Source: Isurus oxyrinchus (lineage: Eukaryota). From it: a DNA stretch of 64,000 bases. Below, in pieces: positions 6,153 through 64,000 of this stretch. The notes below the pieces were generated by a model that had not been told where the DNA came from, did not search any database, and was given only the letters and a program-made list of their open reading frames with translations. Both the position numbers and the translations under genes were made by a program. The stretch is taken from the NCBI GenBank assembly GCA_026770705.1, contig JANJGN010000018.1, positions 40,548,001-40,612,000 of the forward strand, given 5' to 3'. Every line of letters begins with the position of its first letter. Within the stretch, counting starts at the first letter, position 1.

Positions 6153-6286
6153 TAATAAGTGGTCTTCAAAGTTTACCTCCGTAATAGGAACATTATTTCT
6201 AATGTTTTACATTTTGAAACAGTGAAAAGGCTCTGTTTGAATTTAATTTATCCCCTGTGGTCTTGAAGCCATAAGTAGACGAAGGT

Positions 6287-6708
6287 AAAAACAAAAAAAA
6301 AAAACTGCGGATGCTGGAAGTCCAAAACAAAAACAAAAACAAAAACAGAATTACCGGGAAAAACTCAGCAGGTCTGGCAGCATCGGCGGAGAAGAAAAGA
6401 GTTGACGTTTCGAGTCCTCATGACCCTTCGACAGAACTTGATTTCGAGTCCAAGAAAGAGTTGAAATATAAGCTGGTTTAAGGTGTGTGTGTGGGGGGCG
6501 GAGAGATAGAGAGAGAGAGAGGTGCTTGTGTGGACAAACAAGCAGTGATAGAAGCAGATCATCAAAAGATGTCAGTGACAATGGTACAAAAGAACACATA
6601 GGTGTTAAAGTTAAAGTTGGTGATATTATCTAAACGAATGTGCTAATTAAGAATGGATGGTAGGGCACTCAAGGTATAGCTCTAGTGGGGTTTTTTTTTA
6701 ATTTTTTT
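6287..6708 (-). mobile_element. 5'-truncated young PLE copy (terminal repeat only), TTF2 intron 1
   Basis: Near-identical to 26298-26718; TSD TAGACGAAGGT 6276-6286 / 6709-6719. Confidence 0.9.
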
Positions 6709-6966
6709 TAGACGAAGGTCTCGGTCTCCCGAAGGGACAATATCCGACAGAGAGACAGGAGTCTCCATCTTGCAGCACCAACATTCCAAACGCCCGCGGC
6801 TACCATGGTCATCGACCCACGTGGGAAACAACCGGAAATTCCCCTGTTTCAACACCCTGATTAGACTAAAACCTAAAACTCCTCCTGATTGGTCACTCCA
6901 ACGACCAATTAAACGACCTCATATCCGGAAATGTTTCCAACCTCCGACGGGATTCAATCTAATTTC

Positions 6967-7152
6967 AAGACAAAACAAAACTGCGGATGCTGGAAATCCA
7001 AAACAAAAACAGAATTACCTGGAAAAACTCAGCAGGTCTGGCAGCATCGGCGGAGAAGAAAAGAGTTGACGTTTCGAGTCCTCATGACCCTTCGACAGCA
7101 TCCGCCAATGCTGCCAGACCTGCTGAGTTTTTCCAGGTAATCTGTTTTTGTT
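6967..7152. mobile_element. Palindromic mini-PLE insertion (two tails-outward fragments)
   Basis: Minus arm 6967-7098, plus arm 7101-7152; TSD TTCAATCTAATTTC 6953-6966 / 7153-7166. Confidence 0.88.
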
Positions 7153-7225
7153 TTCAATCTAATTTCCCTCAGTTTATACACACACAGACATTTCCAGTTA
7201 ATAGTTTCTGAATATTTAAACATAC

Positions 7226-7253
7226 CATGTTCCTCACACAACACCTTCTCCAT
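7226..7253 (-). CDS. TTF2: Transcription termination factor 2, coding exon 1 (MEKVLCEEH-G)
   Basis: ATG at 7253-7251, 28 coding nt, then donor GTATGT. Resembles the recalled TTF2 N-terminus (MEEVRCPEHG) and joins in phase with exon 2. Confidence 0.9.
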
Positions 7254-7259
7254 TTCACT

Positions 7260-7510
7260 CTGGTTACCGGACCGATGCAAAAACTTACGCCCCTCCCTCC
7301 ACCAAAACCCCACCTACCAAGATCATGTGATACCAGACGCCAAATGAGGCTCTACCGTCTCATCCAATCAGAAATCAAGAACGGCGGCTACATCCGGGTA
7401 CTGTAATTTCAAGTTCCCCGCAGGAAACGGACAGGGTAAAGCACCAATCAGAACGTGGGATAGACAAAGGGCGGGGTTTCAATCACCTCTCTCTGGGATT
7501 GGAGAGCTGG
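7260..7510 (-). promoter_or_regulatory. Probable TTF2 proximal promoter (CCAAT boxes + GC box)
   Basis: CCAATCAG at 7364 and 7444, ATTGG at 7498, GGGCGGGG at 7469-7476, locally CpG-richer, immediately upstream of exon 1. Confidence 0.6.
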
Positions 7511-7798
7511 TTGTTTTCTTGTGTGTGTCTCTTCGGGTATGGGCTTCATACTCTATTAGGACCCAGAGCTGCGGAGATATTGGGCTTTATGGTCACTCAG
7601 AGAAGAACACAAGAATTAGGAAGAATAGAAAATCAGTCTATTTTTTAAATGGAGAGATTGCAGAACTCTGCCTTACAGAAGGATCTAGACGTCCTACTAC
7701 ATGAATTACAAAAGTTATTATGCAGATGCAGCAAGTGATTAGGAAGGCAAATGGGACGTCGGTATTTGTTGCAAAGGAAATGGAATATAAAAGTATGG

Positions 7799-9098
7799 AA
7801 CAAAAACAAAAATTGCTGGAAAAACTCAGCAGGTCTGCCAGCATCTGTGCAGAGGAATACAGAGTTAACATTTCGAGCCCGTATGACTCTTCAGCAGAAC
7901 TAAAATGTGGTGAAATATAAGCTGTGTGAGGGGGGTGGGACAGGTGGAGCTGGATAGAGGGCCAGTGATAGGTGGAGGCAAAGGAGAGATTGTCAAAGAT
8001 GTCATAGACTAAAGGTCAAAGGGGTGTTGACGGTGGTGATATTAGCTATAGGATGTGCTAATGGTGACATTAAGGGTAGAAAGCAGGATGAGCAAGTGAC
8101 AGATGGCTCTAGTGGAGGTGGTGTGGGGTATCGAATTAGGCTAAAAGGTGGAGATAAAACAATGGATGGAAATACATTTTAAAAATAATAATAGAAATAG
8201 GTGGGAAAAGAAAAACATAAATATTTTTAAAAAAAATAATTATTAGAAAAAAGGGGATCAAAAAGGGGGTGAGGATGGATGTTAAGTCCAGAAGGCTGTT
8301 AAGTGCCTAATTGGAAGATAAGGTGCTGTTCCTCCAGTTTGCATTGAGCTTCACTGGAACGTTGCAGCAGGCCAAAGACAGACATGTGGGCATGAGAGCA
8401 GGGTGGTGTGTTGGAATAGCAAGGGACAGGAAGGTCTGGGTCAAGCTTGCGGACAGAACAAAGGTGTTCCGCAAAGTGGTCACCCAGTCTGCATTTGGTC
8501 TCTCCAATGTAGAGACCGCATTGGGAGCAGCGAATGCAGTTGACTAAATTGAGGGAAGTGCAACTGCTTTAATTGAAAGGAGTGTTTGGGCCCTCGGATG
8601 GTGAGGAGGGGGAAAGTAAAGGGGCAGGTGTTGCACCTTCTGATGTTGCATGCAACGCTGCCGTGGGAGGGGGTTGAGGTGTAGGGGGTGATGGAGGAGT
8701 GGACCAGGGTATCCCGGAGGGAATGGTCCCTACAGAATACTGACAAGGGGTGAAGGGATGATTGGAGAGACGAAACGCACACTGGGTGACTGCTTTGAGG
8801 AACACCTTCGGTCTGTCCACAAGCATGACCCAATTTATTAAAATTTACTTCCATCCATTGTTTTACCTCCACCTTTTAGTCTATTTCCATTCCCCCCCCC
8901 CCCCCCCCCCCAACCATCCCACCCCCACTCCCACTAGGGCTATCTGTCACTTGCTCATCCTGCTTTCTATCCTTAATGTCACCATTAGCACATCCTTTAG
9001 CTAATATCACCACCGTCAACACCCCTTTGACCTTTTGTTTATGACATCTTTGGCAATCTCTCCTTTGCCTCCACCTATCACTGGCCCTCTGTCCAGCT
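7799..9098. mobile_element. Older PLE insertion with the same inverted architecture, nested in a CR1 fragment
   Basis: Minus copy ~7799-8755 (RDHSLRDTLVHSS..RRCNTCP, GIY-YIG remnants; hammerhead remnant 7863-7901) and an internally deleted plus copy ~8762-9098. Confidence 0.75.
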
Positions 9099-9099
9099 A

Positions 9100-9590
9100 A
9101 GTATTAGTTCAGAGAAGTTTTACTTAGCTGATTTCTGCGATGAAGGAGTAATCTTATGCGGAAATGCAGATTGGGCCTATACCCGTTGGAATTTAGAAGA
9201 ACGAGAGATGATCATATTGAAACATTTATGATCCTGAGGGGATTTGACAGGGTGAATGCTGGGAGGATGTTTCCCCTTGTGGGGAATCTAGAACTAGAGG
9301 GCACAGTTGAAAAAATAGGCATCTCTCTTTTAAAATGGAGATGTGGAGAGTTTTTTTTCTCTGAGTGTTGTTAGTCTAGAATTATTTTCCCAAAAGAGCA
9401 GTGGAGGCTGGGTCATTTAATTTATTTATGGCAGAGTTAGACCGATTTTTGATCAGCAAGGGAGTCAAGAGTTATGGGGGCATACAGGAAAGTGAAGTTG
9501 AGGCCACAACCAGATCAGCCATGATCTTATTGGATGACGGAACAGGCTTGAAGTGCTGAATGGCCTACTAGTGCTCCAAAGCACTGTATT
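9100..9590 (+). mobile_element. CR1 LINE 3' fragment (others at 5640-5930 +, 32460-32850 +, 44330-44610 +)
   Basis: RLGLYPLEFRRTRDDHIETF..GFDRVN. Confidence 0.8.
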
Positions 9591-9619
9591 CCAAAGTAGG
9601 CTATCTTTGTGATGGGAGG

Positions 9620-13966: not shown

Positions 13967-14046
13967 AAACATTAGTTCTCTTTGAGTTCCATCGATTAAC
14001 CAGTATTCTCAAGTTAAAGGATTCTGAGAATGAGCTCTATAGTACA

Positions 14047-24476: not shown

Positions 24477-24477
24477 A

Positions 24478-25660: not shown

Positions 25661-27769
25661 GCATGAATGTGCCTCCCCTTTAAGATGTGCAGGCTGACTG
25701 TGTGTTGTGCTAGCCATGTTTAATTCTGGGACTCCTGCTGAATGTGCAACACCCAGCAGCACATTTTGTGCTGAGCTACATGCCACCATCATTTAAATGA
25801 GCAGGTGGCACAAAATTTACATCCCGCCTGTCTCAACTTGACCAAGTGCAGGATAATTATGCATCACAATCCATGTGCCGGCTAACGGGCCTAATTGAAT
25901 TCATAGCCCGATATTTTAATCACCCTCAATCATTCAAGCCTGATTTGCCCTCATTCACCTTAAAATATTGATTCTTTCTTATCCGTTGATTAACTCAAAT
26001 GTGCAAATTCTATGTAATAATTCCAAGATGCAAGCTAGTTCACACAATTTGCATAGGCAGTTTTCGAAAGTGGTCATTAGTAATAGTGCATAGTTTGATC
26101 ATTTGGTCAGATACATGGTCTGTAAATTTCAAACCCAAAATCTGCCCAGCGGAACCCAACATTGTAAAAATGACATATCTGTATACATGTGTAAAAAAAA
26201 TTAACAAATGTAAAACAGCACTGGCATATAGGAAAGACAATGAGCAAAATGCTTACATTGCTCCCAGTGGCATTGACAGGAATTACAGAAGCTTAAAAAC
26301 AAAAAAACTGCGGATGCTGGAAATCCAAAACAAAAACAAAAACAGAATTACCTGGAAAAACTCAGCAGGTCTGGCAGCATCGGCGGAGAAGAAAAGAGTT
26401 GACATTTCGAGTCCTCATGACCCTTCGACAGAACTTGAGTTCGAGTCCAAGAAAGAGTTGAAATATAAGCTGGTTTAAGGTGTGTGTGCGGGGGCGGAGA
26501 GAGAGAGAGAGAGAGAGAGAGGTGGAGGGGGTTGGTGTGGTTGTAGGGACAAACAAGCAGTGATAGAAGCAGATCATCAAAAGATGTCAACAACAATAGT
26601 ACAAAAGAACACATAGGTGTTAAAGTTAAAGTTGGTGATATTATCTAAATGAATGAGCTAATTAAGAATGGATGGTAGGGCACTCAAGGTATAGCTCTAG
26701 TGGGGGTGTTTTTTTTTTAAATAATGGAAATAGGTGGGAAAAGGAAAATCTTTATAATTTATTGGAAAAAAAAGGAAGGGGGAAACAGAAAGGGGGTAGG
26801 GATGGGGGAGGGGGGAGAGAGCTCACGACCTAAAGTTGTTGAATTCAGTATTCAGTCTGGAGGGCTGTAAAGTGCCTAGTCGGAAGATGAGGTGTTGTTC
26901 CTCCAGTTTGCGTTGGGCTTCACTGGAACAATGCGGCAAGCCAAGGACAGACATGTGGGCAAGAGAGCAGAGTGGAGTGTTAAAATGGCAAGTGACAGGG
27001 AGGTTTGGGTCATTCTTGCGGACAGACCGCAGGTGTTCTGCAAAGCGGTCGCCCAGTTTACGTTTGGTCTCTCCAATGTAGAGGAGACCACATTGGGAGC
27101 AACGAATGCAGTAGACTAAGTTGGGGGAAATGCAAGTGAAATGCTGCTTCACTTGAAAGGAGTGTTTGGGTCCTTGGACGGTGAGGAGAGAGGAAGTGAA
27201 GGGGCAGATGTTGCATCTTTTGCGTGGGCATGGGGTGGTGCCATAGGAGGGGGTTGAGGAGTAGGGGGTGATCGAGGATTGGACCAAGGTGTCCCGGAGG
27301 GAGCGATCCCTACGGAATGCCGATGGGGAGGGTGAAGGGAAGATGTGTTTGGTGGTGGCATCATGCTGGAGTTGGCAGAAATGGCCGGGGATGATCCTTT
27401 GAATGCGGAGGCTGGTGGGGTGATAAGTGAGGACAAGGGGGACTCTATCATGTTTCTGGGAGGGAGGAGAAGGCGTGAGGGCGGATGCGCGTGAGATGGG
27501 CCGGACACGGTTGAGGGCCCTGTCAACGACCGTGGGTGGAAAACCTCGGTTAAGGAAGAAGGAGGACATGTCAGAGGAACTGTTTTTGAAGGTAGCATCA
27601 TCGGAACAGATGCGACGGAAACGTCAACTTTTTTCTTCTCCGCCGATGCTGCCAGACCTGCTGAGTTTTTCCAGGTAATTCTGTTTTTGTTTTTGTTTTG
27701 GATTTCCAGCATCCGCAGTTTTTTTGTTTTTATCTCTGTGTTTAATTGACTGCCACTGCTCTTCAAGAA

Positions 27770-30526
27770 ATGCCCACCTCCTTGAAGAAGTTCTGTTCTT
27801 TTCTGCGACAAGATTTCCGTTCCTCTCTTTTGCCCTGCTCACCTTCCTTGCTTTCCATTTCCCTCCTGGTGTTTGACAAGGCGTTTACTAAAACCCGCTT
27901 TCACAGCCATATCTTCTTTCTCAGTGACTGTCTCCGTCTCCGACTTACTCCACGTGGATTTCAACTGAAATTCCACCCCTCATCTTTCGAACCCACCCAG
28001 GATTACAGGTATCTCTGGGACATAAAACGTTTCTCAGACTGCTGTTCCCGTCACATTCTGAAATCTACACTCAGTGCCATGCGCCGCCATGTGAACACAC
28101 TCGACCTCTCCCTCCAGCAGCACCGCCGTACCCTTTTTCAAAGCTGCGCGTGCCCCCAGTTTCATTTTATCCTTCAGCTCATCCGACGCCTCAACAAGAT
28201 ACTTTTTCTCTTTCTCTCAAGTGCTAAGGAACGCAAGCTCCAACAACTCATCGACACCAACACCCATCTAGGACCCTCTACCCCTGCCTGTCCCTCCGTC
28301 CCCACCATTTCTTCCAATCCCAACCCCAGCCATGTATTCACTATACCCCCTGACCTTCCCCTCCCCGATGCTGAACGTTCAGTGCTCAGCAAAGGACTTA
28401 GTTTCATACCCTTACGCCCTCACCTCAATGAATTTCGGGCTCGGCATGATGCTGAACTCTTCTTTCACCGTCTTCGTCTCCGGGCTCACTTCTTTGGGCA
28501 GGAGTCCTCTCCCAGTTCAACGGATCCTTTTACCCATCTCCAATATTCTCCCTCCACCTAGACCCCTCCATCTGGATTCTTACCTTGTCTTGATCTTTTC
28601 ATTGAGAACTGTCGGCGCGACATTAGTCGTCTCAATTTCTCTGCTCCACTCACCCATTCTAACCTGTCTCTCTCTGAACTTACTGCACTCCATTCTCTCA
28701 GGTCCAACCCTGACATTGTCATCAAACCCGCTGACAAGGGTGGTGCTGTTGTTGTCTGGCGCACTGACCTCTACCTCGCGGAGGCTGAGCGTCAACTCGC
28801 AGACACTTCCTCCTACCTCTCCCTGGACCATGACCCCACCACTGAACATCAAGCCGTTGTTTCCAGGACTGTCACTGACCTCATCTTCTCTGGGGATCTC
28901 CCTCCCACAGCTTCCAACCTGATAGTCGCCCAACCTCGGACGGCCCGCTTCTATCTCCTACCCAAAATCCACAAACAGAACTGTCCCGGTAGACCGATCG
29001 TCTCAGCTTGCTCCTGCCCCACAGAACTCATTTCTCGTTATCTTGACTCACTTCTCTCTCCCCTTGTCCAGTCCCTTCCCACCTACATCCGTGATTCCTC
29101 TGACACCTTACGTCACATCAACAATTTCCAATTCCCTGGCCCCCTCCGCTTCGTCTTCACCATGGACATCCAATCCCTCTACACCTCCATCCCCCACCAG
29201 GATGGTCTGAGGGCCCTTAGCTTCTTCCTCGAACAGAGTCCCGAACAATCCTCATCCACCACTACTCTCCTCTGTCGGGCTGAACTTGTTCTCACGCTGA
29301 ACAATTTCTCCTTCAACTCCTCTCACTTCCTCCAAATAAAAGGTGTGGCTATGGGTACCCGCATGGGCCCCAGCTCTGCCTGTCTCTTTATGGGGTATGT
29401 GGAACATTCCTTGTTGCAGTCCTACTCCGGCCCCCTTCCACAACTTTTTCTCCGGTACATCGATGATTACTTCGGTGCCGCTTCATGCTCTCGTCGGGAC
29501 TTGGAAAAATTTATTAATTTTGCTTCCAATCTCCACCCCTCCATCATTTTCACGTGGTCCATCTCTGACACTTCCCTTCCCTTCCTTGACCTCTCTGTCT
29601 CAATCTCTGGTGATAGACTGTCCACCAATATCCATTATAAGCCTACCGACTCCCACAGCTACCTCGACTACAGCTCCTCACATCCCGCTTCCTGTAAGGA
29701 CTCCATCCCATTCTCTCAGTTCCTTCGCCTCCGTCGCATCTGTTCCGATGATGCTACCTTCAAAAACAGTTCCTCTGACATGTCCTCCTTCTTCCTTAAC
29801 CGAGGTTTTCCACCCACGGTCGTTGACAGGGCCCTCAACCGTGTCCGGCCCATCTCCCGCGCATCCGCCCTCACGCCTTCTCCTCCCTCCCAGAAACATG
29901 ATAGGGTCCCCCTTGTCCTCACTTATCACCCCACCAGCCTCCGCATTCAAAGGATCATCCTCCGCTATTTCCGCCAACTCCAGCATGATGCCACCACCAA
30001 ACACATCTTCCCTTCACCCCCCCTATCGGCATTCCGTAGGGATCGCTCCCTCCGGGACACCCTGGTCCACTCGTCCATCACCCCCTACTCCTCAACCCCC
30101 TCCTATGGCACCACCCCATGCCCACGCAAAAGATGCAACACCTGCCCCTTCACTTCCTCTCTCCTCACCGTCCAAGGACCCAAACACTCCTTTCAAGTGA
30201 AGCAGCATTTCACTTGCATTTCCCCCAACTTAGTCTACTGCATTCGTTGCTCCCAATGTGGTCTCCTCTACATTGGAGAGACCAAACGTAAACTGGGTGA
30301 CCGCTTTGCAGAATACCTGCGGTCTGTCTGCAAGAATGACCCAAACCTCCCTGTCACTTGCCATTTTAACACTCCACCCTGCTCTCTTGCCCCCATGTCT
30401 GTCCTTGGCTTGCCGCATTGTTCCAGTGAAGCCCAATGCAAACTGGAGGAACAATACCTCATCTTCCGACTAGGCACTTTACAGCCTTCCGGACTGAATA
30501 TTGAATTCAACAACTTTAGGTCGTGA
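27770..30526 (+). pseudogene. PLE reverse transcriptase + GIY-YIG endonuclease ORF (918 codons) with a single in-frame TAG at 28559-28561
   Basis: ORF-track pieces 27746-28561 and 29162-30526 share a frame, and the gap translates stop-free (KPADKGG, FYLLPKIHK..PGRPIVS). Then MDIQSLYT, GVAMGTRMGP, RYIDD, NLVYCIRCSQCGLLYIGET. Confidence 0.9.
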
Positions 30527-30907
30527 GCTCTCTCCCCCCTCCCCCATCCCTACCCCCTTTCTGTTTCCCCCTTCCTTTTTTTTCCAATAAATTATAAAGA
30601 TTTTCTTTTTCCCACCTATTTCCATTATTTTAAAAAAAAACACCCCCACTAGAGCTATACCTTGAGTGCCCTACCATCCATTCTTAATTAGCACATTCGT
30701 TTAGATAATATCACCAACTTTAACTTTAACACTCATGTGTTCTTTTGTACCATTGTTGTTGATATCTTTTGATGATCTGCTTCTATCACTGCTTGTTTGC
30801 CCCTACAACCACACACCCCACCCCTCCACCTCCCTCTCTCTCTCTCCGCCCCCACACACACACCTTAAACCAGCTTATATTTCAAGTCTTTCTTGGACTC
30901 GAACTCA

Positions 30908-30946
30908 AATTCTGTCGAAGGGTCATGAGGACTCGAAACGTCAACT
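30908..30946 (+). ncRNA. Minimal type I hammerhead ribozyme motif in PLE terminal repeat (variant core CUGUCGA)
   Basis: CTGTCGA-A-GGGTC-ATGAG-GACTC-GAAAC-GTC-AACT: stem II, GAAA core, palindromic ACGT stem III. Further copies at 6400-6438(-), 7064-7098(-, partial), 26397-26435(-), 42610-42648(-), 42871-42909(+), 63495-63533(+). Confidence 0.7.
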
Positions 30947-33900
30947 CTTTTCTTCTCCGCCGATGCTGCCAGACCTGCTGAGTTTTTCCAGGTAATTCTG
31001 TTTTTGTTTTTATTACAGAAGCTTAAACTGCTCTTAATTCTGTGCGACACTGTACCAAGAAACAGCAAAGGGACACACATTTAAAAGACAGTGCATAGAA
31101 CACAAAAGAAAATCTTATTATTTTACTTCAATCCTATTTTCCCACAACAAAAGTAATCTGATATTTGCTGTGGCTTTCAATTTAATTTTCTTCCTAAATC
31201 TGTGCTTACTCTTTGTATATCTAACAATTAATTTTTACTTGTCTGCTTAACAATATTAATTTGCTGTGAAAGGGTTAATACAAACTCCTCAACCTGCTGC
31301 AAAATTTTTTGATTTCCTCTCTGTTGAACAAAGGAAGGTGTGTAATTGCATTGAGCAGAGAAAGAAGGATACACTGAGAAATTCATTGAAATTCCCAGTA
31401 ATTTCTCAGCTGCGGAATCATTAGAACTGTACGTCTCACTCCTGCAAATCCCATACCATCTTTATGTCACTCACATTGTTCCCTTTCACTCTCAGATTTA
31501 AGGCTGCCTCTGTTTGGGTTCACTCAAAAAATCCTTCTCAAGTATTTTCTCCAATAATTCTGTCACAAAGATGACATCCACCACCATGCCCCATGGAATA
31601 CTGGGCTCCATGCTCCTTTAATTTTCTCATTGTTCAAATGTCTCAATCATTTCCACTGCCACATGGGTCTTATCACATCTGTGCTGGGCAGCCCCGAATC
31701 AATGTTCACACTACTACTGATCTTGGTTTCTGCCTGGCTTGCCGAACTCTAGATATTCGTAAAACTAGAGACAATAATATGTTTAATAATATGCTTCATT
31801 TATTATTGACACAACATTAATCTTAAACAGCAACATATTACTTACTATATCAATTTAAATGGGGACCTGTAAAAGTGGCTTCTCCATACCACCAAGACTT
31901 GAAAGCAGCTACAGCTTCTTTCTAAATCAATCAATCAATCAATAAATAAATAAATAAATAAATTAAAAAAACGTGGGATTTCTTTTTACCATTTTCTTTT
32001 ATGGTTCTCTTCATGCTGAATGCAACTGTTATTTTAAGACCGCCCAGGCTTTCCAACTGATTTCTAAACAGAGATGAGAGTCCCCAGGGCTTGCTATACA
32101 GTACTGCTGTTTCCAAAACCCAAGCTATAGCTTTGTTGGAAACAATCTTTGATGCTCTTATCCTGCTGTGATGAAAAGACAGTATCCCAAAAACTTTCAT
32201 CTTTCAATCCTAATACTTCTTTAAACTCTACATTTCTCCACCTGCTTTATTTATATGTGCCTACCTTTATAGTACACAACAACATCCTTGCTCCTGAAAT
32301 TGATCCTTCTATAATGTTAGCAGCATCACTGAAGGGAAAGGACAGGCTTTTCGAGAACACAATTCATTGCCAATTCTGTCTGCATTTTATTTCCACCAAA
32401 GACAAAACCGTAAAGTAAAAAAAAAATGACATTCTTACAACAATTATCAAGAAATTCTGAAGAGGCTGGGATATTTTTTTCCTCTAGAAAAGGGAAAACT
32501 GAGGGGTGATTTAATAGAGGTCCATAAAATTCTGCAGGAGGTTGATAGGGCAAAGAAGATGTTTCCAGTAGCAGGGTGTTCCAGAACTAGGGGTCATAAA
32601 TATATGATAGTCATTAATAAATCAAACAAGGAATTCAGGAGAAACTTGTTTGTCCAGAGAGTGGTAAGAATGTGGAAGATTGGAGTAGTTGAGTTGAATA
32701 ACACAGATGCATTTAAATGGAATAAGTACAAGAGGGAGAAGAATAGAACAATAATCTAGAACATTAGATGAAATAAGGGAGGATGCTCATAATGGAGACT
32801 AAACACCAGCAAGGCCAGATGGGCTGACTGGCCTGTAAATTCTATATAATTAACAACTCTCAAAATATCAAATATTCTGGAGAATCTGGTATCACAAAGC
32901 AAAGAGAACTAAATCTGCAAATCTTAGAAAAATGAAATAAAAAAACACAACATATCAATCAGTATAATTCAGACTCTTATGACAAGAAATGTACACAAAT
33001 AAGTATGAGCCAGAAATCAGTCCCTGTATATTTTATTTAACAAGTTCAGAACAATTAAATTGCTATCCACAGAACCACTAAATCAAGAGCCAGGACTCAA
33101 ATTTCCATGGAAGTTTTCTCAAGTGTAAGCAGTAATGTTAGTGGAAGATGTGCAGAAATTCCAGAAAATTGACAAAATTACAGTGGGGCAATTGAGAGAA
33201 CTCTCACAGACATAACTGGCACATGCCTCGAATGTACCAGGCATGCACCGTTGGTAGCAACCTCCGCATAATCCTGTCCAATTTATTTACCTTTTACAGT
33301 ATAGTTTGAATTTGCCTGCTAGTCTGAATGAAAATTAATTTGGCTCCTTAACAGCTTATATCAGATTTTGCTTATTGCATGCATAAAATTAATATAGTGA
33401 AAAATTAAGAACCTAATTGGATCTTACTGAGACTTTTACGTGTTATGCCTGAAGCAAGAATTTCTTATAATTGGAGCAAAGGAATGCAATGAAGTAAATG
33501 GATAGATTTAGGAAACTATACTCAGATTAATATTAGTTTGTGTTCATCAAGCATTAAGGAATGTAGATTTTGTCCAGTGGGTGGCATCGTATCCCAACTT
33601 TTAAAGAGGTACTTGGAAAATAATCCCGTATCGGGGCACTTCTGATTCAATATTATGTAGTGTTGCTTACAGTAAATCAGGGATTTTGAATGTTTGCTAA
33701 TTAGTATCACCAGGGATCAAGACTTATTAGAACAAAAGCAAAATACTGCAGATGCTGGAAATCTGAAATAAAAACAGAAATTTCTACTCAGCAGGTCAAG
33801 TAGTGTGGAGAAACAGAGTTAATGTTTCAGTACCAAAAATATTAACTCTTTATCTGCACAGATGCTGTATGACCTACCCCGACATATTATCATTGGGTGA

Positions 33901-40770: not shown

Positions 40771-42543
40771 ATAGAACTTAATGGCTTTTTAAGAAACAGT
40801 TAGGCAGGTTCTTGTCAATAAAGGAGATTCAAGATTATTAGAAATGCAGCAAGGGAATTCTTGGGTGGGTGGGCGAGGCCTCCTGCATAAAGTTGTTAAT
40901 TTACTACTACCCAGCAATAACAGAGCAGATGTTAAAAAGTTAATGATTCATGCCTCATTTAAGAGATTTAAGGAAATAAATCTAGACTTGACACTTTAGT
41001 GCAGGGCTGAAGAAATGCTATCGGAAGTGTCACCTGTCAGTTGAGATGTTAAGCCGAGGCCTTGTTTGTTCTCTCAGGTGGGCATAAAATACTTTGTCGG
41101 ACAATTTGAAAAGACCAGGGATTCTCCGAATATCCTGGCCAACATTTATCCTCAACTGACACAAATGACAAAATAATCTGTTTCAATGCTCAATGCTATT
41201 TGTTGACACTTGCGTATAAGGAAAAATAACCACTTGAGTGAGGGAACAAAGCGTCTCATATCTATGAACCATCCCAACAGAGTCCGAAGAAAAAAAACTG
41301 ATAGTTTCTTAATTACAAATGTGGACACAGCACTGACTGAAACACAAAGATCTTTTCAAGACCCGGTATTTTATTAACAACAAAATGACAAAATATTTCA
41401 AACAAAGCACATCACATTTTTAAATTTCCATTAAAATACTTACATCACAAATGAAATTCCACAGTATCATGCATTACTGATACATTGAAAATACCTAAAA
41501 CAGGACATCTGTCCAAACAATCAGAAACTGGGAATATCCCAACACTTCAGTATAGAATTGTTTAATTTGATCATGGCTTGGAGTAAAGGCTCCCACCTCG
41601 CAATGTCAAATTTAAAATCAGGTCAACCATATAGCAGGAAATGCTGGAAGAAATGCCTATCTGCAGGAAGCTCATACATCAGGCTGGCTGTGAGAGATTT
41701 TTATTCCTTCATTCATTTTAATATTGTGAAGCATTCACCTCGCAAACATTTTCCCAGTTATCAGTAAGACATTAAACCAGAAGGCTCTCATCCTCTATAA
41801 CATTTCTACCACCAGGCAGTGCAGGGACCCTTTTGGATCATTTTGAGAAAAGGTTAGTACTATAGTTACAAAGAGTAACAATCTCGTTAGGTGAAAACAG
41901 CACAAATTTACCAAATTAATCAAACGGTTCGACATGGTTGTGTCAAAGGTTGACACTTCTGATTGAGCATAAAGCTTTGAGAAATTGTGAATAAAGTAGA
42001 ATGAATCAGAATTAATGCACAATAATTTTTTCAAGGAAGCATTTTCAGTTACATCACAGGCCAAAAGTTACAATACACTCCACTGGAGAAGCTAGAGGGC
42101 CAAAATATGACCACCCTGAAATATAGTGCATTCAGTTTTAGCAACAAGTTATCGTTATTGTAATTCAACTGTAATGTATGTTCTGTCTTTGCAAATCCAA
42201 AACTCATATTTATCTGCGTGGTTTTGTTTACAACAGTCAATGTAGTTGCATTGCATTGACGAGATTAATTGTATTTCCAGTGACACACAGAATCTCATAT
42301 TTTTCCCTCTACTGAAACTATAGGGTAAATATTCATATTCACTCTATTCACATTGGCAATCAACTGATGGAGCGGAACATTGCCAAATCGACAACCTGCC
42401 TGAATTTTAACCCATTGATGGATTCTATAACAGAGTGGTGGGGTTGGGGGTGGAAGGGCACTCCATTCCACGGATTACTGCTCACATGCTGAAGATGAAA
42501 ATTTATACTCTGCTGTCTGCTTATCCACCTGAGCACTGAGGAA

Positions 42544-43013
42544 CAAAAACAAAAACAGAATTACCTGGAAAAACTCAGCAGGTCTGGCAGCATCGGCGGA
42601 GAAGAAAAGAGTTGACGTTTCGAGTCCTCATGACCCTTCGACAGAACTTGAGTTTGAGTCCAAGAAAGAGTTGAAATATAAGCTGGTTTAAGGTGTGTGT
42701 GTGGGGGGCAGAGAGAGAAAGAGAGAGAGAGGTGGGGGGGGTGTGGTTGTAGGGACAAACAAGGTACAACCACACCCCCCCCCACCTTTCTCTCTCTCTC
42801 TCTCTCTCCGCCCCCCACACACACACCTTAAACCAGCTTATATTTCAACTCTTTCTTGGACTCGAACTCAAGTTCTGTCGAAGGGTCATGAGGACTCGAA
42901 ACATCAACTCTTTTCTTCTCCACCGATGCTGCCAGACCTGCTGAGTTTTTCCAGGTAATTCTGTTTTTGTTTTTGTTTTGGATTTCCAGCATCCGCAGTT
43001 TTTTTGTTTTTAT
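42544..43013. mobile_element. Palindromic mini-PLE insertion (~210-bp arms, 13-nt spacer)
   Basis: Spacer 42752-42764; TSD CTGAGCACTGAGGAA 42529-42543 / 43014-43028. Confidence 0.9.
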
Positions 43014-46000
43014 CTGAGCACTGAGGAAGTTTGCAAAGGTTGCTTTGCTATCTGCTGTGTGGAACATGTTGCTCCATGTGCAATAACTAGCTACATTCAT
43101 TGCAAACTCTGCTCAATAGCATTTTAAACATGTAAACTCAAATTTTAAACAGGAACAGATTCAAATTACTAATGAGTTTTTTGAAAGCGCAATAATTAGC
43201 TGACATTATACTTTACAACCCATCCTATTCATCAGTAGTTACATGCTGATTGCATTCAACAAAAGTATTTCACTAACATCTGCAAGTGGAATAGCATAAG
43301 ACAGCCTCACATACAGCAATCAGCCAGATACAATGGTCAAATTAATCCTTATAAGCATGGCTCATTGTACTTGAACCTGTATTGGTACCTTGCTACCACT
43401 TCCTGCTGACTCTCCAAACCAATTGATATATATTTGGAAGTTTTCATTTTGAAAACTGAATTTTAAAAAAATCAAGAGAAATGTTATTTATTTATTTTTG
43501 TCTCAACACCCACCTTTACCTACAGATCCGATGACAAATGATAGATAACTCAGGTTGTTAGACATCAGGTTGATGCCTGCCCCTCTTCAGTTACTGTTCA
43601 ACTTTAGTACTTATACTGTTAAGGGGAAAAAATAAGATGTTATCTCTAGGCTGTATTGTAAGTTGTACTAAAATGTTAGAACAACTCATATTCACTTATG
43701 AGGTATTTAACTTGCATCAGAAATAGCTAAACAACAAAATATTGTTTTATTGAACTGTAACTGCGCTATAATAAATAGATAAAAGCTGCAGACTTATTTT
43801 AAATATAATTTTAAACAGCATATTTAGTACCAAGACTAACATGAACATAAATTTTTGAGGTGTCCCTTTCCAATGCCTGTCATGTTTAATGTGAATTGGA
43901 CTAGCTTTAAATATTATTTAGCATGGATTTTAACACTTCCTCTTTGAAATTCAAATTTTCACAATATAAAAAAACAGATGGAGGGACTGAAGTGAGATGT
44001 ATAGCATTTCTCCAGTTGGAAAGATTCGAGCTAATCTCCCAGAATGAGATATGATGTGAGAACTGGGGGATTGAGGCATTAGTTGAAAATACCTTATAAT
44101 AAAGTGGACTCAAAAGGTATAAATGCCATTTGAATGGCTTTTTCAATCTGTCCAGCAAGCACATCAGATTTCGCACCAAAAGGAATTTGGACATACTGTG
44201 GAATCACACTGGCTTGAAAGATCTGATTGGAACTTTAGCAAATACCTAAAGTCTACCAACCTGTTCATCTGACATCCTATTCTTCCTTCACACACACCCA
44301 CCCAAATGTATGTAACCTTTAAAATTAAGAGTGTTGATAAAATAAATAAGGACAAAATGTTTCCACTGGCAGAAGGCTGGCATAAAGAGCATAGATTTGA
44401 GATAATTCGCAAAAGAACCAGAGGGGAAATGATGCAAACTGTTATTAGTTATTAAATGGAATGCATTTCATAAAAGAGTGGTGGAAGCAGATTTTAAAAG
44501 TGAACTAGAAATATACTAGAAAAGGAACAATGAGCAGGGATAGAGAAAGAGTTGTGTAGTGGGATGAATTGGATAGCTCTTTCAAAGGCATGATGCCAAC
44601 TTTATGATTCTGTGAAAACAGCTCCCCTCAGGTGGTAACTGAACTATACCTCAAATGGAAATGAACCAGGCAAAATGCCCTCAGGTTCAATGAATGGGGT
44701 GTACTGAATTAATTGATCACTTGGGTACTACAATTGTATCCAGAGACCCTGACCCAAAGGGGGCAAAATAGCCAGAATGACTCAGGTTGGAAAATGTGTG
44801 TGAAATCTCACTGAGAACAGGTTCAGGTACAGCTCTTATGCCACTCACTATCAGACAATCTACTGGGAATTGCTATCTAGGGTCAGACAGACTGGCTATT
44901 TGGATGGGATGACTGGCTACTTGGATAGGAGTACTGGGGGGCTGTCATGGAATTGTACTCCAGCAAGATTCAGCATCTTCTGATGAGATGGGAGAAATAC
45001 AGAAAATTAACAAGCAAAAAAAGTAAAAGAGCTGCAGATCTTTAGAATGATTCAAGTGTGAAATGTCTTTGGCTCATTAATGTCTGTTCACTGATATATT
45101 GTAATTCAGTTTTGTACATTTAAAAAAAACTACAGAGATATAAACTCTTCACAATTTAAATACATGTTTAAGGGGAGCAGTATGGTGAGAATTTATGACC
45201 TGTTCCCAAATTTGGGATTTAAAAAAAATGTTTTTTTAGGGTTATGAGGAAAATATTCAGTCTTGGATTTCTATAGAGTTGACACTATTTCTTTTATATA
45301 CTATATTCTAAATTGCTGCTTTTTGGCCAGATTCAATAGTTCAAACCAAGATTTTCTCATGTTTTCTAGCTACATTACTTTTTCTCAATAAACAGTCTAC
45401 AACTATCTGCATTTCCATGGAAAAACTCCTCTTTGCATAAACAGGGAGTGAAAATATACAAAACATACCAATTTTTCCAATTCTTGGAAACTTGCAGCAT
45501 CAGCAATTTGTGATCCATTATCAGTTTCCCTGCAGGTTACGGGGATGATATGAATACTGTACATCATTCATGTCATCACACCTTCATTGAAATATTAATT
45601 AAAAAGTATGCTTGCATGACTTGTATTGCCATAATATTGCTGAATATAGGATTTTACTGCAACGTGCAATAAAGCCCCAAGCACCAACTTTATAAAATTG
45701 GCCCTTTTATATTTCTGCTCAATTATCCAATTCAGCCTGCAAAGTAGAATGTGTATTTGCTGAAGCTCCAAATAACACCCAATTACAGTTTGCTTTTTGA
45801 AGTTGCAGTATCATCTTTCAACATGTGAAGGCCAGCTCAGAACCAGTTATGCCTTTCTTGGCTTACTTAGCCAAGGCTTAGGTGCGATATACCCATATTG
45901 CTACTTTACATGGCTTTTGTGGTGTCAACTGCTGCAGTTCATAAATGTCACTGATGCCTTTTCACACTGCTTGGAAACTCTACAGGTCATACTGGTAAAA

Positions 46001-47995: not shown

Positions 47996-48169
47996 AGTGG
48001 GAACAGATCAAATTAACCACGTAATAACCTATCAATTCAAAATTTGTATTGCATGAAACCATACCAATTCAACATGAAAACTGATAAACCAGCTAGGTAG
48101 GGATATCCAATCAGGTTGGTTAACCATTCAGTGCTGGGATAAAAAGTTTCCAATTGTAGAATCTTCCTA

Positions 48170-54819: not shown

Positions 54820-55236
54820 CTTTATCTTGTACAGTGACCATGACCAGCCCAGACTCATCCTCCCCTAGTTTGTACCAGATATTGTTGGCATTTTGAATCC
54901 ATTCCTCCACATGACAGTAGTAATTGCCCGTGTCACTGCTGGCCGAGTCCTGCACCGTCAAGCTATACAATCCATTGGAAGGTCTCTCTAACTGCAGTCT
55001 GTCCTTCATTCCCTCAGCTCCATCCAATGAGACATCGAACCCAAACACTGAATTATGATCAACTTTTAAAATTGTCTCCTTTTGGTCAGCACCTTCCTTG
55101 ACTTTCCACACGAACCAGGATACGGCAAACTGGGAATTATCTTGTGTTCGGTGGGTTACATTGCAGCAGAGCTGAAACAAGTCCTTCTCTGGTATGCTAA
55201 TGTTCAATTCTGTTTTATCCACTTGCATTTTAAATT
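54820..55236 (-). CDS. IGSF3: IGSF3-like protein, membrane-proximal Ig V-set exon with EWI motif
   Basis: AG/GT-bounded 417-nt phase 1-1 exon; LCCNV..VSWF..DTGNYYCHVEEWI. Confidence 0.85.
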
Positions 55237-57560: not shown

Positions 57561-58598
57561 GCCCTTTAAGAACAACCCTACGACCACCACTTTCTTCCCC
57601 CACCTGACTGCGTATAAACATGTGTGCGTATGAGGAATACACACCCCTGCTTTTAGGCTGTGAAGGTGTAATATATTACTCGTCAGGACAACGCTGCAAA
57701 CAGGATTAACGTTGTTCAGTTACTGCCCAGGAAGAGTTTACAGAACAAAGTGTTAAACTTTACAAAGCCTATTGCATATGAATTTTAAAAGAAACTTTTG
57801 TTTAACATGGAATACCAAGTAAGATGGAATCCTGTCAAAATAATAGGCATAATAGGGGTGAATTTTGTCACAAGCCCACAGCCTGGGTAAAGTAGACAAC
57901 ACTGAGTCACTGGACAGTCTGGTGCCCTTGTTAAATTCAATCTTGTCATTAATAATGATGCATCATCCAACTGACAGGATTGTGCTAACCCATGACAGTG
58001 ACATTGAACTCCTTTGAAACATAGAAGAGCAACTAATAGTGGCACTCAAATTTTTCAGGAAACCAGAGCACATGTAAATCTTGCTAGCCCCGCATCACCT
58101 GTGTTAAGTGTGTGGAATTTTGGGGGTGGGGGTAACTCATACAGCAAGCAAGATATTTATACAATGTGCACTGTGGTACTGTGATGGGCACTGTGTTTTG
58201 GCTCTAACATCTGTATTGGAGGCAAGACAGCATAGCTCATTTGGGAACTGCTGGTGCTGTTTAAGCAGGACATTTATAATGTTTGCGGTGTTATGCTATG
58301 GATTTGATGCCAAAATAGACAAAACCTCTGTTATATTTATGATGTAAACAACATTGCAATTTAAAACTGAGGTAATTCAGTACATATCAATCGGCTGGAT
58401 GTTATTGTATTTCAGAAACCAGATTTCAGCTAATTTTCTGTATAATTTAATTCCTCAAACATCGTACAGCCATGTCTTAAGATTTCCAATAAAGAGACCT
58501 CATGTAATGTGGTCTGATGCCAATCAGAGGAATAGCTTTTGTAAATCACTCTTCAAAAATACATTTCTCCCAAATTGAAATGAATAGCTATAGAATAC

Positions 58599-59009
58599 CT
58601 GGTTGTTGTACAGTGACAGTAGTCAGTCCAGACTGATCCTCTCCCAGTTTATACCATACATCATTAGGGTCAAGTAGCCATTCTTCCACATAACAGAAGT
58701 AACTCCCAGTGTCTGATGTAGTTGCTTTCTGTAGTGTCAGACTGTAGAGTTCATTGGTAGTTTTTTCAAACTGTAGCCTATCCCTCAGGCTTGCACTGTT
58801 ATTCTCAGAGCTGCCATACTCAAAAACAGAATTCCGATTCAGGCTGAGAATAGGATGTCTATCTTGCTGTAGTGCTCTCTGGGCATACCAGAACACAGAT
58901 AGTTGGGAATCCAAGTTGGTACGATTGCTGATCTTGCATTCCAGCAGAATCTGACTATCCTCTGGCACCATAATATTTCTTTCAGTTTTGACAGTTTGCA
59001 AATTGCTTT
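58599..59009 (-). CDS. IGSF3: IGSF3-like EWI-family protein, Ig V-set domain exon
   Basis: AG/GT-bounded 411-nt phase 1-1 exon with Ig motifs LECKI..VFWY..YSLTL..DTGSYFCYVEEW. Confidence 0.85.
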
Positions 59010-59875
59010 CTGTAGGTAGAAAAAGTTTTCACTTTATTAAAAGGAAATTTGAAAGCCAAAGAATTTAAATATTATAGAATACTAGTTTCATAATTCCCCA
59101 ACAGATTTATCAGATATTCTATTCAAACACATTAACATGACTATGTTAAAAAAACGTGATTTGTGTAAACACATAGAAAATAGTTTGACCTTTTGAGCAT
59201 CAAAACAGCTCATAAAAACAGAAATTACTGGAAATCAAAGATTCACAGAATGGTTACAGCACAGAAGGAAGCCATTCAGCCACCACGTCCATGTCAGCTC
59301 GCTATAAGAATTACTCAACTAGTTCCACTTCCCTGCCTTTTCCCCATAGCCCTGCAATATTTTTCTCCTTAAATAATAAGAGTATCTAATTTCCTTTTAA
59401 AAAGCATGATTGAATCTGCTTCTATCACACTCTCGGGTATTGCATTCCAGATCCTAACCATTTGCTGCATAAGTTTTTTCATGTTGCCTTTGGTTCTTTT
59501 GCAAATCATCTTAAATCGGTGCCCTCTGGTTCTCAATCCTTCCACCAACAGGAACAATTTCTCCTTATTTACTCTATCTAGGCCCCTCATGATTTTCAGC
59601 ACCTCTATCAAATCTCCTCTTAACCTTTTCTTCCATAAAGAGAGCAGCCCCAGCTTCTCTAATCAGTCCACATAACTGTTGTCCATTCTCCTAAATCTTT
59701 TCTGCACCCTTTCCATTGCCTTCACATTCTTGGCCAGAATTGGAGATAATATATTCTAGTAGAGGCCAAACTATTGTTTTATGCTCTGTCTTTATTCATA
59801 AAGTCCAGGATCCCATATGCCTTATTTACTATTTCTCAACCTGTCCTGCCAGCTTCAATGAGCTGTGCACCTATG

Positions 59876-60637
59876 GGGTGGAATTTAATCTTCTCCCCTG
59901 AGGTGAGTTTGGATAATGGGTGCATTTAATCAGGCTAGGGGGTGCAGGTGGGGACCTCACTGCCTTCCCGTCTCTGCTCCAATTATGTCTGGAACAGGAA
60001 GGCTCACGGGCGGCTTCCTGGCCTGACGCCAATTCATGCCCACACTTACCGGCCTCATCCTGCTGCTGCTGGCATTCAACCAGACGAGGGAGGCCAAGAG
60101 ACAAATCCTGTTGAGTTTGCCTGCGGGGCTTCCAGGAGGCGAAAGGAGAATGTCCCTCATCGTCAGGCACTCACTGACAGATCGGGGGACCCCACATCAG
60201 GAAGTGGGGGGCAGGGGTCCACTGAGAGCTGACCCTGCTCTTTCTTCCAACCCCTAACTAGCCCCTATGCCAACCTCTAGCCAGTGACCACTGACCCCCA
60301 TCCTGCCCTCACGATACCTGTGGCCTGAGTCTCTCGTTCATCCTGGGCATCGGTGGGGGGGGGGGGGGGGGGGGGGGGGTGCATTGCCGGCAGCTACACT
60401 GCTCCTGGTGGTGTTGCCTACTATGGAGAGTTGTTGGCCTCTGATTGTCCAGCAGTACTCGTGGGATGGGATTTCTGTCCCCAAGGTCCTTGATTCTGAG
60501 GAAGGCTCACTGCTGGCCACTTAAGTACCTGAGAGGCACTTAATATGGTGGGCCTTCCCCGAAGGCAGTGACGCGGGATTCTTGCCAGCTTTCCAGTTGG
60601 CAGGTGAGATCCCTGTCACCTGGATTAAGTTCCACCA
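59876..60637. mobile_element. Harbinger-type non-autonomous element inserted in a CR1 fragment
   Basis: TIRs GGTGGAATTTAATC / GATTAAGTTCCACC. Confidence 0.7.
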
Positions 60638-61514
60638 ATACCCCTTGGTCCTGCTGCTCCTACAGCCTCTTTTGCCCCTTTAAAAAAAATAAAGGATACA
60701 ATTAATTGTTTTCCCTCATTCTTCCTATCAAAATGTATCACTTCTCTGCATTAAATTTCATCTGCCACATGATCGCTCATTTCACCAGCCTGTCTTTGTC
60801 TTCTTGAAGTCTATCACCAACCTCTTCATAGTTCACAATACCTCGAAGTTTTGTGTCATCAGTAAATTTTTGCAATTGTGTCCTGTGTACCCAAGTCATT
60901 AATCATTATCTTCTTCAGTTCTCTGCCCAAAGGCACGTCCTTGGCAATAATTCGCTGAACCACAGCAAGGTGCCATGATTTGTTACTATAGGTAGGAAGG
61001 AGGCAGGCCCAAGTCTACCTCAGCCGAACAGAGATTGAACTCCATGCTGCTGGCATTAGGTCACGAACATAGATCATGAAAAGCAGTGATCCTAGTACCG
61101 ACCCCAGGTGAACTCCACTATTTATCTTCCTCCAGTCTGAAAACAACCACTCACCGGTACTCTTTCCTGTCACTCAGCCAACTTAGTATCCATGCTGCCA
61201 TTGTTCCTTTTATTCAATGGGCTTTAACTTTACTGACAAGCGTGGCACTTCATCAAATGCTTTTTGGAAGCCCATGAATACCCCTTCAACCACATTACCC
61301 TCATCAACCCTCTCTGATATTTCCTCAAAAAACTCAATCAAGTAAGCCAAACATCATTTTCTCTTAACAAATTGTGCTGACGTTTCTTCATTAATTAACA
61401 TTTGTCCAAGTGACTATTAATTTTTTTTGGAGGATTATGGCCAGTGTCTCCGCATTTTCCACCCATACTTTTGTAAATGTCCTGGGGTTGATCTGATCCA
61501 GTCCTGAAGATTTT

Positions 61515-61880
61515 TAAAATTCTTTCACAGGATGTGGGTATCACTGGCAAGGCCAGCATTTGTTGCCCATCATTAATTGCCCTTGAGCTGAACATTTCAG
61601 AGGGCAGTTAAAAGTCAACCACATTGCTGTGTGACTGAAGTCACCTGTGGGCCAGACCAGGCAAGGATGACAGATTTCCTTCCCTAAAGGGGTGATCGTG
61701 AACTAGGTGGATCTTTATGATAATCGATGATAGCTTCATGGTCATGATTAATGAATCTAGCTTTATATTCCAGGTTTTTTATTAATTGAATTTAAATTTC
61801 ATCAGCTGCCATGGTGGGGTTTGAACCCATGTCCCCAGAACATTACCAGAGCAGTGAAATTACCATTACACCATCATCGT
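61515..61880 (-). mobile_element. SINE sharing its 3' tail with the 14047 LINE (also 34390-34730, 16905-17130)
   Basis: ggatgtggg..caaggccagcatttgttgcccatc tail plus tRNA-like head (ggtttgaacccatgtccccag). Confidence 0.65.
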
Positions 61881-62639
61881 AACACCTCCCCTTTGTCAAT
61901 TTTTAGCCCATCTGGTGTCTCAACTACTTCCTCTTTCACTTCTTCCTTGATAAAGACGGATGCAAAGTAGTCATTTAGTACCTTAGTCATGCCCTCTGCC
62001 TCTACATATAAATCTCTTTATTGGTCCCTGATTGACCCTACCCCTCTTTTTATCAACCTTTTACTTCCTAAAACGAATGCACTACTGACCACTCGAAGAG
62101 GAAAATGATTTCCAACAGCATTCATCAGCCTGTGACCAATGTTTGTCAAAAAAATCAACAATATGAACAAGAAACTAAATGGCCCCAAATGAAATAACTC
62201 GAGAAGTAATGAGATTTATGATGATGACAAAGTGACATATAGGGCTTATTACTAAGATTATTGTCTGGAAAAGTTGCAGGTAATAGATCAAGAAACAAAC
62301 AAAGAACACGGAACGGTGATGAGCAGAAGTGACATTAGATGCTGATACAATCTAACTGTACTGAGTGCACTGATCACTAGCCTCAACAGCAGTTAACACA
62401 CAAATAAAAAGGGCATTTGTGTGTGGAGAGGTGAATTTCTCATTGTATTCTTCTGCAATCCAGGTGAGTTTCACACAAAAATTTTGCAAAAATAATTTAA
62501 ACTATACGGTAGTTTCTCCACCACGAGAATACACACAACCCCTGAGTGTCTACATTCTTCAACGAGCCATTCAGATAATGACAGCACTTAGCTGCATAGG
62601 AAAGCAACCACAGAAATCAGCGTGAGCTCCTCTCCTGGA

Positions 62640-64000
62640 CGTTGCTCATGAGGCCTCTGGTTCAGTAGTGCTGGAGCAGTGCAGCCTCAAATTTCTTAAT
62701 TGGTTGCTAGGAAAGGAAATTTCTATGGGCCCACTAATATTGCAACAATGATGACCTTTTTAGAGTTCAAAATTTGTTCAAATGAAATGTGTTCTCTTAG
62801 TGTGCTGGAGTTTCTCTGTCATGTGGATGCAATTCCATGCACCATGTGAGTCAGTTCCATAGCACCAGCAGCAACAGTCAAATGACTGCATGCAAACTAT
62901 CATTGCTGTTGTCAGTCCCTTCAGATGAAGATGATGTCTGCCAGCCTTCAAGATTTGTGTGTTCTCAGGTGACTCCAATCCTGGAGCCACAGGTCTTTGG
63001 GCAGAAAGGACAAGAGTTGCTCCAAGTAAAAAGAGTTTTCTTGAGCCAGGGTTCTGCTCTCTTTCCTTCCACTTTCATTGTTTTTCTGCAGCAGAGTTTA
63101 TGCAGCAGTTCCTGACTGTGTTGCAGCTTATTGGATGAGGCACCACAACACAGCACAATTAACGACAAATTCCTTCCGTGCACCAATGTCAATTTGTTCC
63201 CTTTTCAATAAAGCCTTCAGAGTGTCCTTAAAATGTTTTCTCTGCCTTCCTTGAAATTGGGTGGCATTTAAGTTTGAAAAGAGGATCTGCTTCAGATGCG
63301 GTGTCTGGGTGAGTGGAGCTGATTTCGCATGATTGTGGTTGCAATGCTGGAGGAATTGGCTTTGGTGAGAATGCCAGAGCTTGTTCATCTGTATAAAAAC
63401 AAAAAACTGCAGATGCTAGAAATCCAAAACAGAATTACCTGGAAAAACTCAGCAGGTCTGGCAGCATCGGCGGAGAAGAAAAGAAAAGAGTTTGAGTTCT
63501 GTTGAAGGGTCATGAGGACTCAAAACGTCAACTCTTATCTTCTCCGCCGATGCTGCCAGACCTGCTGAGTTTTTCCAGGTAATTCTGTTTTTGTTTTGTT
63601 CATCTGTATTCCCACTTGACTTTGAGTATTCTGCAGAGACACTGTTGGTGGGGATTCTCCAGTGATCAGAGACTTTGGAAGGTAGCCCAAGTCTCACTGC
63701 CATATAGAAAGTTGGTGACTAAAGCTTTTGCCCTCTTACGAAGATCTCTATTGTCAAAGACCCGCTTGTGCAATTTTTGGAAGGTGCAGCAGCACAGCCA
63801 ATTTGGTGCTGGATCTCCCCTTTGATGGTGACCTTTTGAGAAAGGTAGCTCCCAGGATCTGGGAAGTGTTCAAAACTTCTTAAATTCTCCCCATCAATAA
63901 CAACAGTTGGAGGTGTGGATGCTTGAATGGAGGAGGGCTGGTGGAGGATTTTGGTCTTGCTGATGTTGATTGAGGGATTAACCCTTTTGTATGCAGAGTT
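62640..64000 (-). mobile_element. RTE-clade LINE 3' region
   Basis: HLKQILFSNL..QGRQRKHFKDTLKALLK and C-terminal CPFCPKTCGSRIG. Confidence 0.7.
63395..63595. mobile_element. Palindromic mini-PLE insertion inside an RTE LINE
   Basis: Minus arm to 63492, plus arm from ~63495; TSD TTGTTCATCTGTAT 63381-63394 / 63596-63609. Confidence 0.88.

Follow-up and report, generated by a model that had tools for sequence, protein, structure and literature searches.

We analyzed a 64,000-nt stretch of the Isurus oxyrinchus genome (assembly GCA_026770705.1, contig JANJGN010000018.1, forward-strand positions 40,548,001 to 40,612,000; hereafter the window, whose own numbering is used throughout) that contains five insertions of a Penelope-like element (PLE), labeled A to E from left to right. 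The inserts make up 9.4% of the window, which contains no N, and are fairly young retrotransposition products of one PLE family. Each is flanked by an exact target-site duplication (TSD), of 11, 14, 16, 15, and 14 bp, at the positions given in an earlier reading of this DNA made without database searches (the sequence-only reading). A random control produced an exact repeat of at least 11 bp within 5 nt of both junctions in 1 of 20,000 position pairs.

The insertions and their source element

Outer ends of the inserts were either long, carrying a 3' tail, or short, stopping in a T5G tract. Insert A is a solo, 5'-truncated, minus-strand copy (6287-6708; 6276..6719 with its 11-bp TSDs at 6276-6286 and 6709-6719) with the long tail at its left end. 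Inserts B, D, and E are inverted pairs. Insert B (186 bp; 6953..7166 including the 14-bp TSDs at 6953-6966 and 7153-7166) has a long-tailed minus arm (6967-7098), whose 5' end is at the core of a candidate hammerhead motif described below, and a short-ended plus arm (7101-7152), with a 2-nt insert at 7099-7100 between them. Insert D (470 bp; 42529..43028 including the 15-bp TSDs at 42529-42543 and 43014-43028) joins a short-ended minus arm (42544-42763) to a long-tailed plus arm (42765-43013) across a 1-nt insert at 42764. Insert E (201 bp; 63381..63609 including the 14-bp TSDs at 63381-63394 and 63596-63609) consists of a long-tailed minus arm (63395-63492), whose 5' end is at most 2 nt from the predicted hammerhead cut, and a short-ended plus arm (63495-63595), again with 2 nt inserted between them.

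Insert C (4714 bp; 26298-31011, or 26282..31027 with the 16-bp TSDs at 26282-26297 and 31012-31027) had been described as two copies. It is instead an inverted 1.32 kb copy followed by a partial tandem, which begins within an upstream pseudo-long terminal repeat (pLTR) and brings in a third tail, of the read-through kind. The minus-strand left arm (26298..27619) is a long-tailed 3' part comprising the end of the open reading frame (ORF), the 3' untranslated region (UTR), and the pLTR. It overlaps the right arm by 2 nt (27618-27619). The right arm, on the plus strand, starts with a truncated upstream pLTR (27618..27733) whose start is 6-8 nt upstream of the hammerhead cut predicted at 27625/27626 and which reads through both the short site and the tail. 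It continues with a 918-codon ORF (27770..30526) containing one in-frame stop (28559-28561), and with the 3' UTR and downstream pLTR (30527..31011), which stops at the short site.

The ORF encodes an N-terminal region, a DKG motif, a reverse transcriptase (RT), a CX4CxxC linker, and, at the C terminus, a GIY-YIG endonuclease (EN). The plus-strand ORF matched RVT_1 (E = 6.8e-8). A GIY-YIG match was obtained with the left-arm translation (E = 1.9e-4, 22.1 bits, just below the 22.6 cut-off); no GIY-YIG profile match was reported for the plus ORF, and PF01541 was present in several full-length homologs. The CCHH motif is present, its two Cys lying between GIY and YIG (VYCIRCSQCGLLYIG), and its first His is retained in the left arm of insert C and replaced by Tyr in the right arm. 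The DKG motif, named for PLEs in PMC8557442, occurs as KPADKGG upstream of the RT core and is near-invariant in 13 aligned proteins; the linker reads CPRKRCNTC and is kept in relatives. Among at least 120 homologs, the five named ones of highest identity (65-73%) belong to sharks and rays, in line with a cartilaginous-fish host, and a PDB search with the RT-EN protein recovered no relative.

These sequence features mark the element as an EN+ PLE with a C-terminal EN, of Neptune or Nematis type by the definitions set out in PMC8557442. The RT, linker, GIY-YIG domain, and layout thus bear out the original PLE assignment, and the inserts have the structural make-up described for PLEs: a pLTR from a partial tandem, a 5'-truncated copy in inverted orientation, a tail of 30-40 bp on one side, and a TSD. 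The Penelope/Poseidon clade, which has no Zn-finger linker, was excluded by the presence of the linker. A Neptune-type affiliation is probable from the linker motif and the vertebrate host rather than from a tree. As described for Neptune in PMC8557442, the family has a C-terminal GIY-YIG with CCHH, a CX2-5CxxC linker, a DKG motif, and a candidate hammerhead in the pLTR; it differs in that its five sites are not microsatellite targets and its hammerhead core has U at position 6. The family is possibly already catalogued in Repbase or Dfam.

The layout of the inserts also has precedents. The "typical Penelope structure" of PMC3846280 comprises direct pLTRs plus an inverted pLTR within one TSD, and one inverted pLTR bears a tail of 31 bp; the element described there, Pen2a_Av of Adineta vaga, differs from ours in belonging to the Penelope/Poseidon group and in its shorter TSDs and optional tail. 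PMC8557442 likewise notes that the tail, of 30-40 bp, is often confined to one end. In Drosophila virilis the commonest form of Penelope, as given in PMC2377424, is a partial tandem with a 5'-truncated upstream copy and variable inverted repeats, with a 34-37 bp end repeat. That layout is the one seen in insert C, although D. virilis Penelope belongs to a clade lacking the linker Zn-finger and has an insect host.

By eye, and following the minimal hammerhead ribozyme layout described in PMC4209133, we located a candidate minimal type I hammerhead motif (core CUGUCGA, stem II, GAAAC-GUC) at 30908..30946 on the plus strand, with predicted cleavage at 30942/30943 in the downstream pLTR. Seven young arms show this layout by inspection, with the core as CUGUCGA in six and CUGUUGA in one; the CUGUCGA cores, with U at position 6, lie near 30912, 42875, 42644, 26431, 7098, and 6434, and an older copy at 6028 has the canonical CUGACGA. 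Hammerhead families were absent among the 41 Rfam matches at E <= 1, which were miRNA-like hairpins, all below the gathering score. The PLE palindromes at 42660-42860, 63434-63583, and 7022-7133 were among the sequences scoring as miRNA-precursor or hairpin families, and such palindromes are a likely source of false miRNA calls. A natural A6C hammerhead variant is less active (PMC3088659). Judging from the core sequences, the most recently active family may carry a weakened ribozyme, in line with the Poseidon element PAc of Anolis carolinensis, which does not need cleavage in vitro. Five of the nine young arms have 5' ends (7098, 7101, 27618 of the 3.4 kb arm, 63492, and 63495) that lie between -35 and +13 nt from the predicted cut, one of them within 2 nt of it, and the 5' end of an older copy at about 6026 is also close to it. 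These ends may reflect RT stalling at the ribozyme or run-off from cleaved RNA.

Two classes of outer end and the geometry of the arms

All four inverted inserts (B, C, D, and E) have their arms head to head, with 3' ends toward the flanks and both ends abutting a single TSD. The nine outer ends of the young inserts fell into two classes, five long and four short, and each of the four inversions paired one tailed end with one terminating in the T5G tract. In B, C, and E it is the left end that is long, and in D the right end. The central observation of the sequence-only reading, outward-tailed inversions with one long and one short end each and a solo copy with a long end, was thereby confirmed. 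Short ends extend 11-16 nt and long ends 39-63 nt past a GGTAAT anchor, and a variable number of T5G units (0-3) accounts for most of the spread in the long class. The tailed arms at 6287, 6967, 26298, 43013, and 63395 have 3, 1, 2, 2, and 0 units at the short site, through either microsatellite slippage or RT skipping where the second primer sits. Measured on the read-through copy within insert C, the two classes are about 33-42 nt apart, so that the separation itself held up and the 35-45 nt first proposed was slightly too large.

Of eight ends that could be scored, seven have 1-4 nt in common with the TSD, a total of 16 nt against 6.1 expected (P = 0.006, under a null that allows for the TSD-calling procedure); the end at 6967 was omitted from the count as its last bases are variant. 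The earlier remark that most ends share a few nt with the TSD was therefore correct, and above chance, although a T-rich nicking preference could give an equal effect.

Both arms of each inversion carry the element 3' end, and they overlap by 52-1280 nt. In C, D, and E the short-ended arm reaches further 5' than the tailed arm: relative to the predicted hammerhead cut, it covers the whole ORF in C (-1213 for the tailed arm), -151 in D (-139), and about -35 in E (0). The tailed arm in these three inserts has an ending without counterpart in its supposed template and is therefore not a fold-back copy of the other arm. None of the four inner junctions has a symmetric center: that of C shows 2-nt microhomology, and those of B, D, and E contain 2, 1, and 2 extra nucleotides, respectively. 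At the junction of B (7096-7105), the insert plus its flanks form a 10-mer that also occurs in the tail, which has a chance of 0.9% per junction; given three junctions with inserts, the match hints at templated end-joining but goes no further.

Mismatches between arms number 39 beside 1243 identities in C and 5 beside 203 in D. In the coding part of the C arms, 23 of 795 nt differ, and 7 of the differences are synonymous against 6.3 expected under neutrality. The differences are thus of the neutral type, and the arms must have been near-identical at insertion, each having decayed by about 1.5% since. Two simple-repeat characters are common to the arms of C and not to those of D, which weakly suggests that each insert came from a single source.

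Origin of the inverted insertions

The model that fits best is twin priming followed by end-joining, which we consider to have about a two-in-three chance of being right. The GIY-YIG domain would nick both target strands 11-16 bp apart. Reverse transcription would be primed by each nick, with the help of 1-4 paired primer nucleotides, at either of two internal U-rich tracts that lie just downstream of the hammerhead motif and about 35-40 nt from each other. The point at which a cDNA ends would vary, from about 50 nt to 3.4 kb. Where both nicks were extended, host end-joining of the two cDNA 3' ends would leave unequal head-to-head arms within one TSD; extension of a single nick would give a solo copy such as insert A. 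Head-to-head joining of independently primed cDNAs, as the sequence-only reading proposed, agrees with the arm geometry and the junction anatomy, from which we infer it. By the same model, both nicks would act in one event, the cDNAs would be linked by end-joining, and the two sites would be RT start sites in this family too.

Twin priming with a 5' inversion is known from L1, in which a second nick primes a second cDNA and the joint between the two, within one TSD, shows microhomology or small inserts, the inverted part being an internal, non-overlapping piece of the RNA. The PLE inserts would work alike but are not L1-type inversions, as both arms start at the element 3' end and overlap.

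The closest experimental parallel is PAc, which nicks and extends both strands in vitro and whose RT starts at two adjacent internal sites bounding the tail (PMC11167929). The sequence here is consistent with two neighboring start sites and with both nicks acting as primers, and this part of the earlier interpretation is largely covered by what PMC11167929 reports. In PAc, too, the tail is bounded by two internal sites, spaced about 35-40 nt, that come after a hammerhead motif; the PAc sites lie inside the ORF, whereas those in the window lie upstream of the first ATG. Inverted products are not modeled in the relevant text of PMC11167929.

In an unlikely alternative, though one with published backing, priming would occur once, before a template switch or a second integration step, and the tail would be defined by the way the endonuclease resolves an intermediate and not by where RT starts. 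The tail is ascribed to EN-mediated resolution in PMC8557442, earlier work cited in PMC11167929 held the tail to be required for EN recognition, and a strict asymmetry would follow naturally. On the other side, PMC11167929 places genomic ends on the two RT start sites, and in the window both end classes carry primer-type microhomology with the target.

Self-priming, in which antisense RNA or the first cDNA primes its own copy and the resulting hairpin integrates with one arm trimmed, is the explanation offered for head-to-head PLE palindromes in PMC3846280. It would account for arms that were near-identical at insertion, and insert B, with its longer arm tailed, fits it. A cDNA fold-back fails by arm containment for three of the four inserts, however; the junctions offer 0-2 nt for pairing, the loop in insert C would be about 2.1 kb, and PAc employs sense RNA with DNA nicks as primers (PMC11167929). 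We therefore regard self-priming as improbable, with antisense-RNA fold-back and later trimming as the form in which it could still apply.

Fold-back chimeras from assembly or sequencing reads are hardly credible. Assemblies are known to have difficulty with PLE inversions (PMC8557442), and the sequence-only reading had itself named such an artefact as fatal to its proposal, but the arms of C and D differ by ordinary, neutral decay, each insert has its own exact TSD, and the window is free of N. Movement of the small palindromes as miniature inverted-repeat transposable elements (MITEs) by a DNA transposase deserves next to no weight, as their size (186-470 bp) and inverted arms are offset by unequal ends, variable 14-16 bp TSDs, three different junctions in three small inserts, and arms that are PLE 3' ends. 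The suggestion that small products mimic MITEs thus holds for shape and fails for arm equality, TSD, and shared junction; symmetric terminal inverted repeats, a short fixed TSD, and many copies of the same structure were not found among the small inserts.

Several observations weigh against twin priming with end-joining. The sample is four inversions, and the family is known from its sequence alone. Folding of the two-site region revealed no defining RNA structure in young copies (z = 0.24 and 1.09; -1.72 for the older copy at 6020-6155), and none of 12 consensus pairs had two-sided changes, giving no covariation support for a structure that marks the sites. The plus-strand cDNA of insert C crosses the long-tail site by 115 nt, so that a single linear RNA would require strand displacement. 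The start sites of PAc are AC-rich and from another clade, whereas those proposed here are U-rich. Insert B is compatible with fold-back, and antisense-template self-priming has been proposed for such palindromes (PMC3846280). Among ten arms, 14 of 14 pLTR variants are private and the family is star-like, so that one RNA and two cannot be told apart here. Finally, a search within the window for empty sites matched none of five constructs across the junction.

The sequence-only reading also called the long/short asymmetry fixed. Four discordant pairs of four give p = 0.0625 if ends choose independently and 0.23 when the totals are fixed at four ends of each class, so the asymmetry is not established at n = 4. 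Obligate pairing, in which any insertion with two arms would combine a single long end with a single short one, is a reading that we consider less likely than not. Both target nicks would then be loaded at once onto neighboring tracts of one RNA by a single ribonucleoprotein that contains two RT/EN active sites. No long/long or short/short pair was seen among the four inversions; a weak older pair at 4363-4509, described below, and the two simple-repeat variants common to the arms of C and absent from those of D also speak for it. Four of the 138 rows in Table S1 of PMC3846280 are -/+, and two of these have both ends at the consensus start, at 40/69 and 76/40 nt; they seem to us, though the authors do not say so, to be long/short palindromes of 410 and 917 bp in a rotifer. 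Against obligate pairing, n is small and the tail is called optional in PMC3846280. PAc had no start-site difference between strands in PMC11167929, which we also count against obligate pairing, yet it neither shows nor excludes coupling within an event. We found no statement of obligate pairing and no twin-priming model for PLEs in the literature searched; Fig. S2 of PMC11167929, on genomic ends, may bear on pairing, which the relevant passages of PMC8969392 and bioRxiv 10.64898/2026.07.22.740005 do not address.

Taken together, the original observation was accurate and its interpretation mostly right, and most of both is already in print. Added here are the evidence against cDNA fold-back, the end-joined appearance of the junctions, the neutral decay of the arms from near-identical templates, and the U-rich sites in a Neptune-type family. 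PMC11167929 leaves the steps after RT initiation unvalidated, and PMC8557442 names the origin of PLE tandem and inverted structures as a task for in vitro work. With a young, dense family, clean TSDs, and non-repetitive targets, end types can be counted per event, unlike in microsatellite-targeting PLEs. If pairing were obligate, the tail would be the physical spacing between two polymerases, general across PLE clades, and double priming would be coordinated on one RNA, which is relevant to retroelement mechanism and to RT-based gene insertion tools. If it were not, the window would be a tidy illustration of known PLE anatomy. In either case, palindromes of 190-470 bp in such genomes risk misfiling as MITEs or miRNA hairpins.

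Older relics and neighboring features

A profile search of the window added older relics at 4363-4509, 4941-5043, 6022-6149, 7796-7903, 33733-33876, and 50792-50872. The first inventory thus covered the five young inserts and overlooked these relics of related subfamilies, none of which can be firmly scored as a pair. The degraded relics belong to other subfamilies, and the one at 4941 extends to 5553. Seven visible relic ends stop at the same two model positions, four long and three short. The only complete-looking pair, long/short, is at 4363-4509; its second arm is weak (E = 0.22) and it has no TSD, and it was left uncounted. Eight relic boundary pairs were checked for a TSD, and a plausible one, of 8-10 bp, came from 6026-6150 alone; 6022-6149 is a solo, long-tailed older copy with this possible TSD.

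An older related PLE inversion spans 7796-9100, with a minus arm to 8762 and a plus arm from 8761. It is inserted in another repeat and has a short left end, and its right end is gone along with about 100 nt of the host repeat. The host repeat recurs at 22805-23474 and 24587-25248, and we take it to be LINE/CR1-like. At least six PLE-derived insertions of different ages are clustered within 5 kb (4347-9100), possibly an insertion hotspot or a region of relaxed selection. A five-copy dispersed repeat unrelated to the PLE (14046, 21494, 34385, 47852, and 61510) has a common 78-nt end. On the minus strand, 54764-55279 and 58588-59028 are two mutually similar exons, each with an immunoglobulin (Ig) V-set domain, in what looks like a multi-V-domain gene. 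This may be of the CD101/IGSF3 kind; PDB matches were generic antibody and T-cell receptor ones only. Insert E may lie inside one of its introns.

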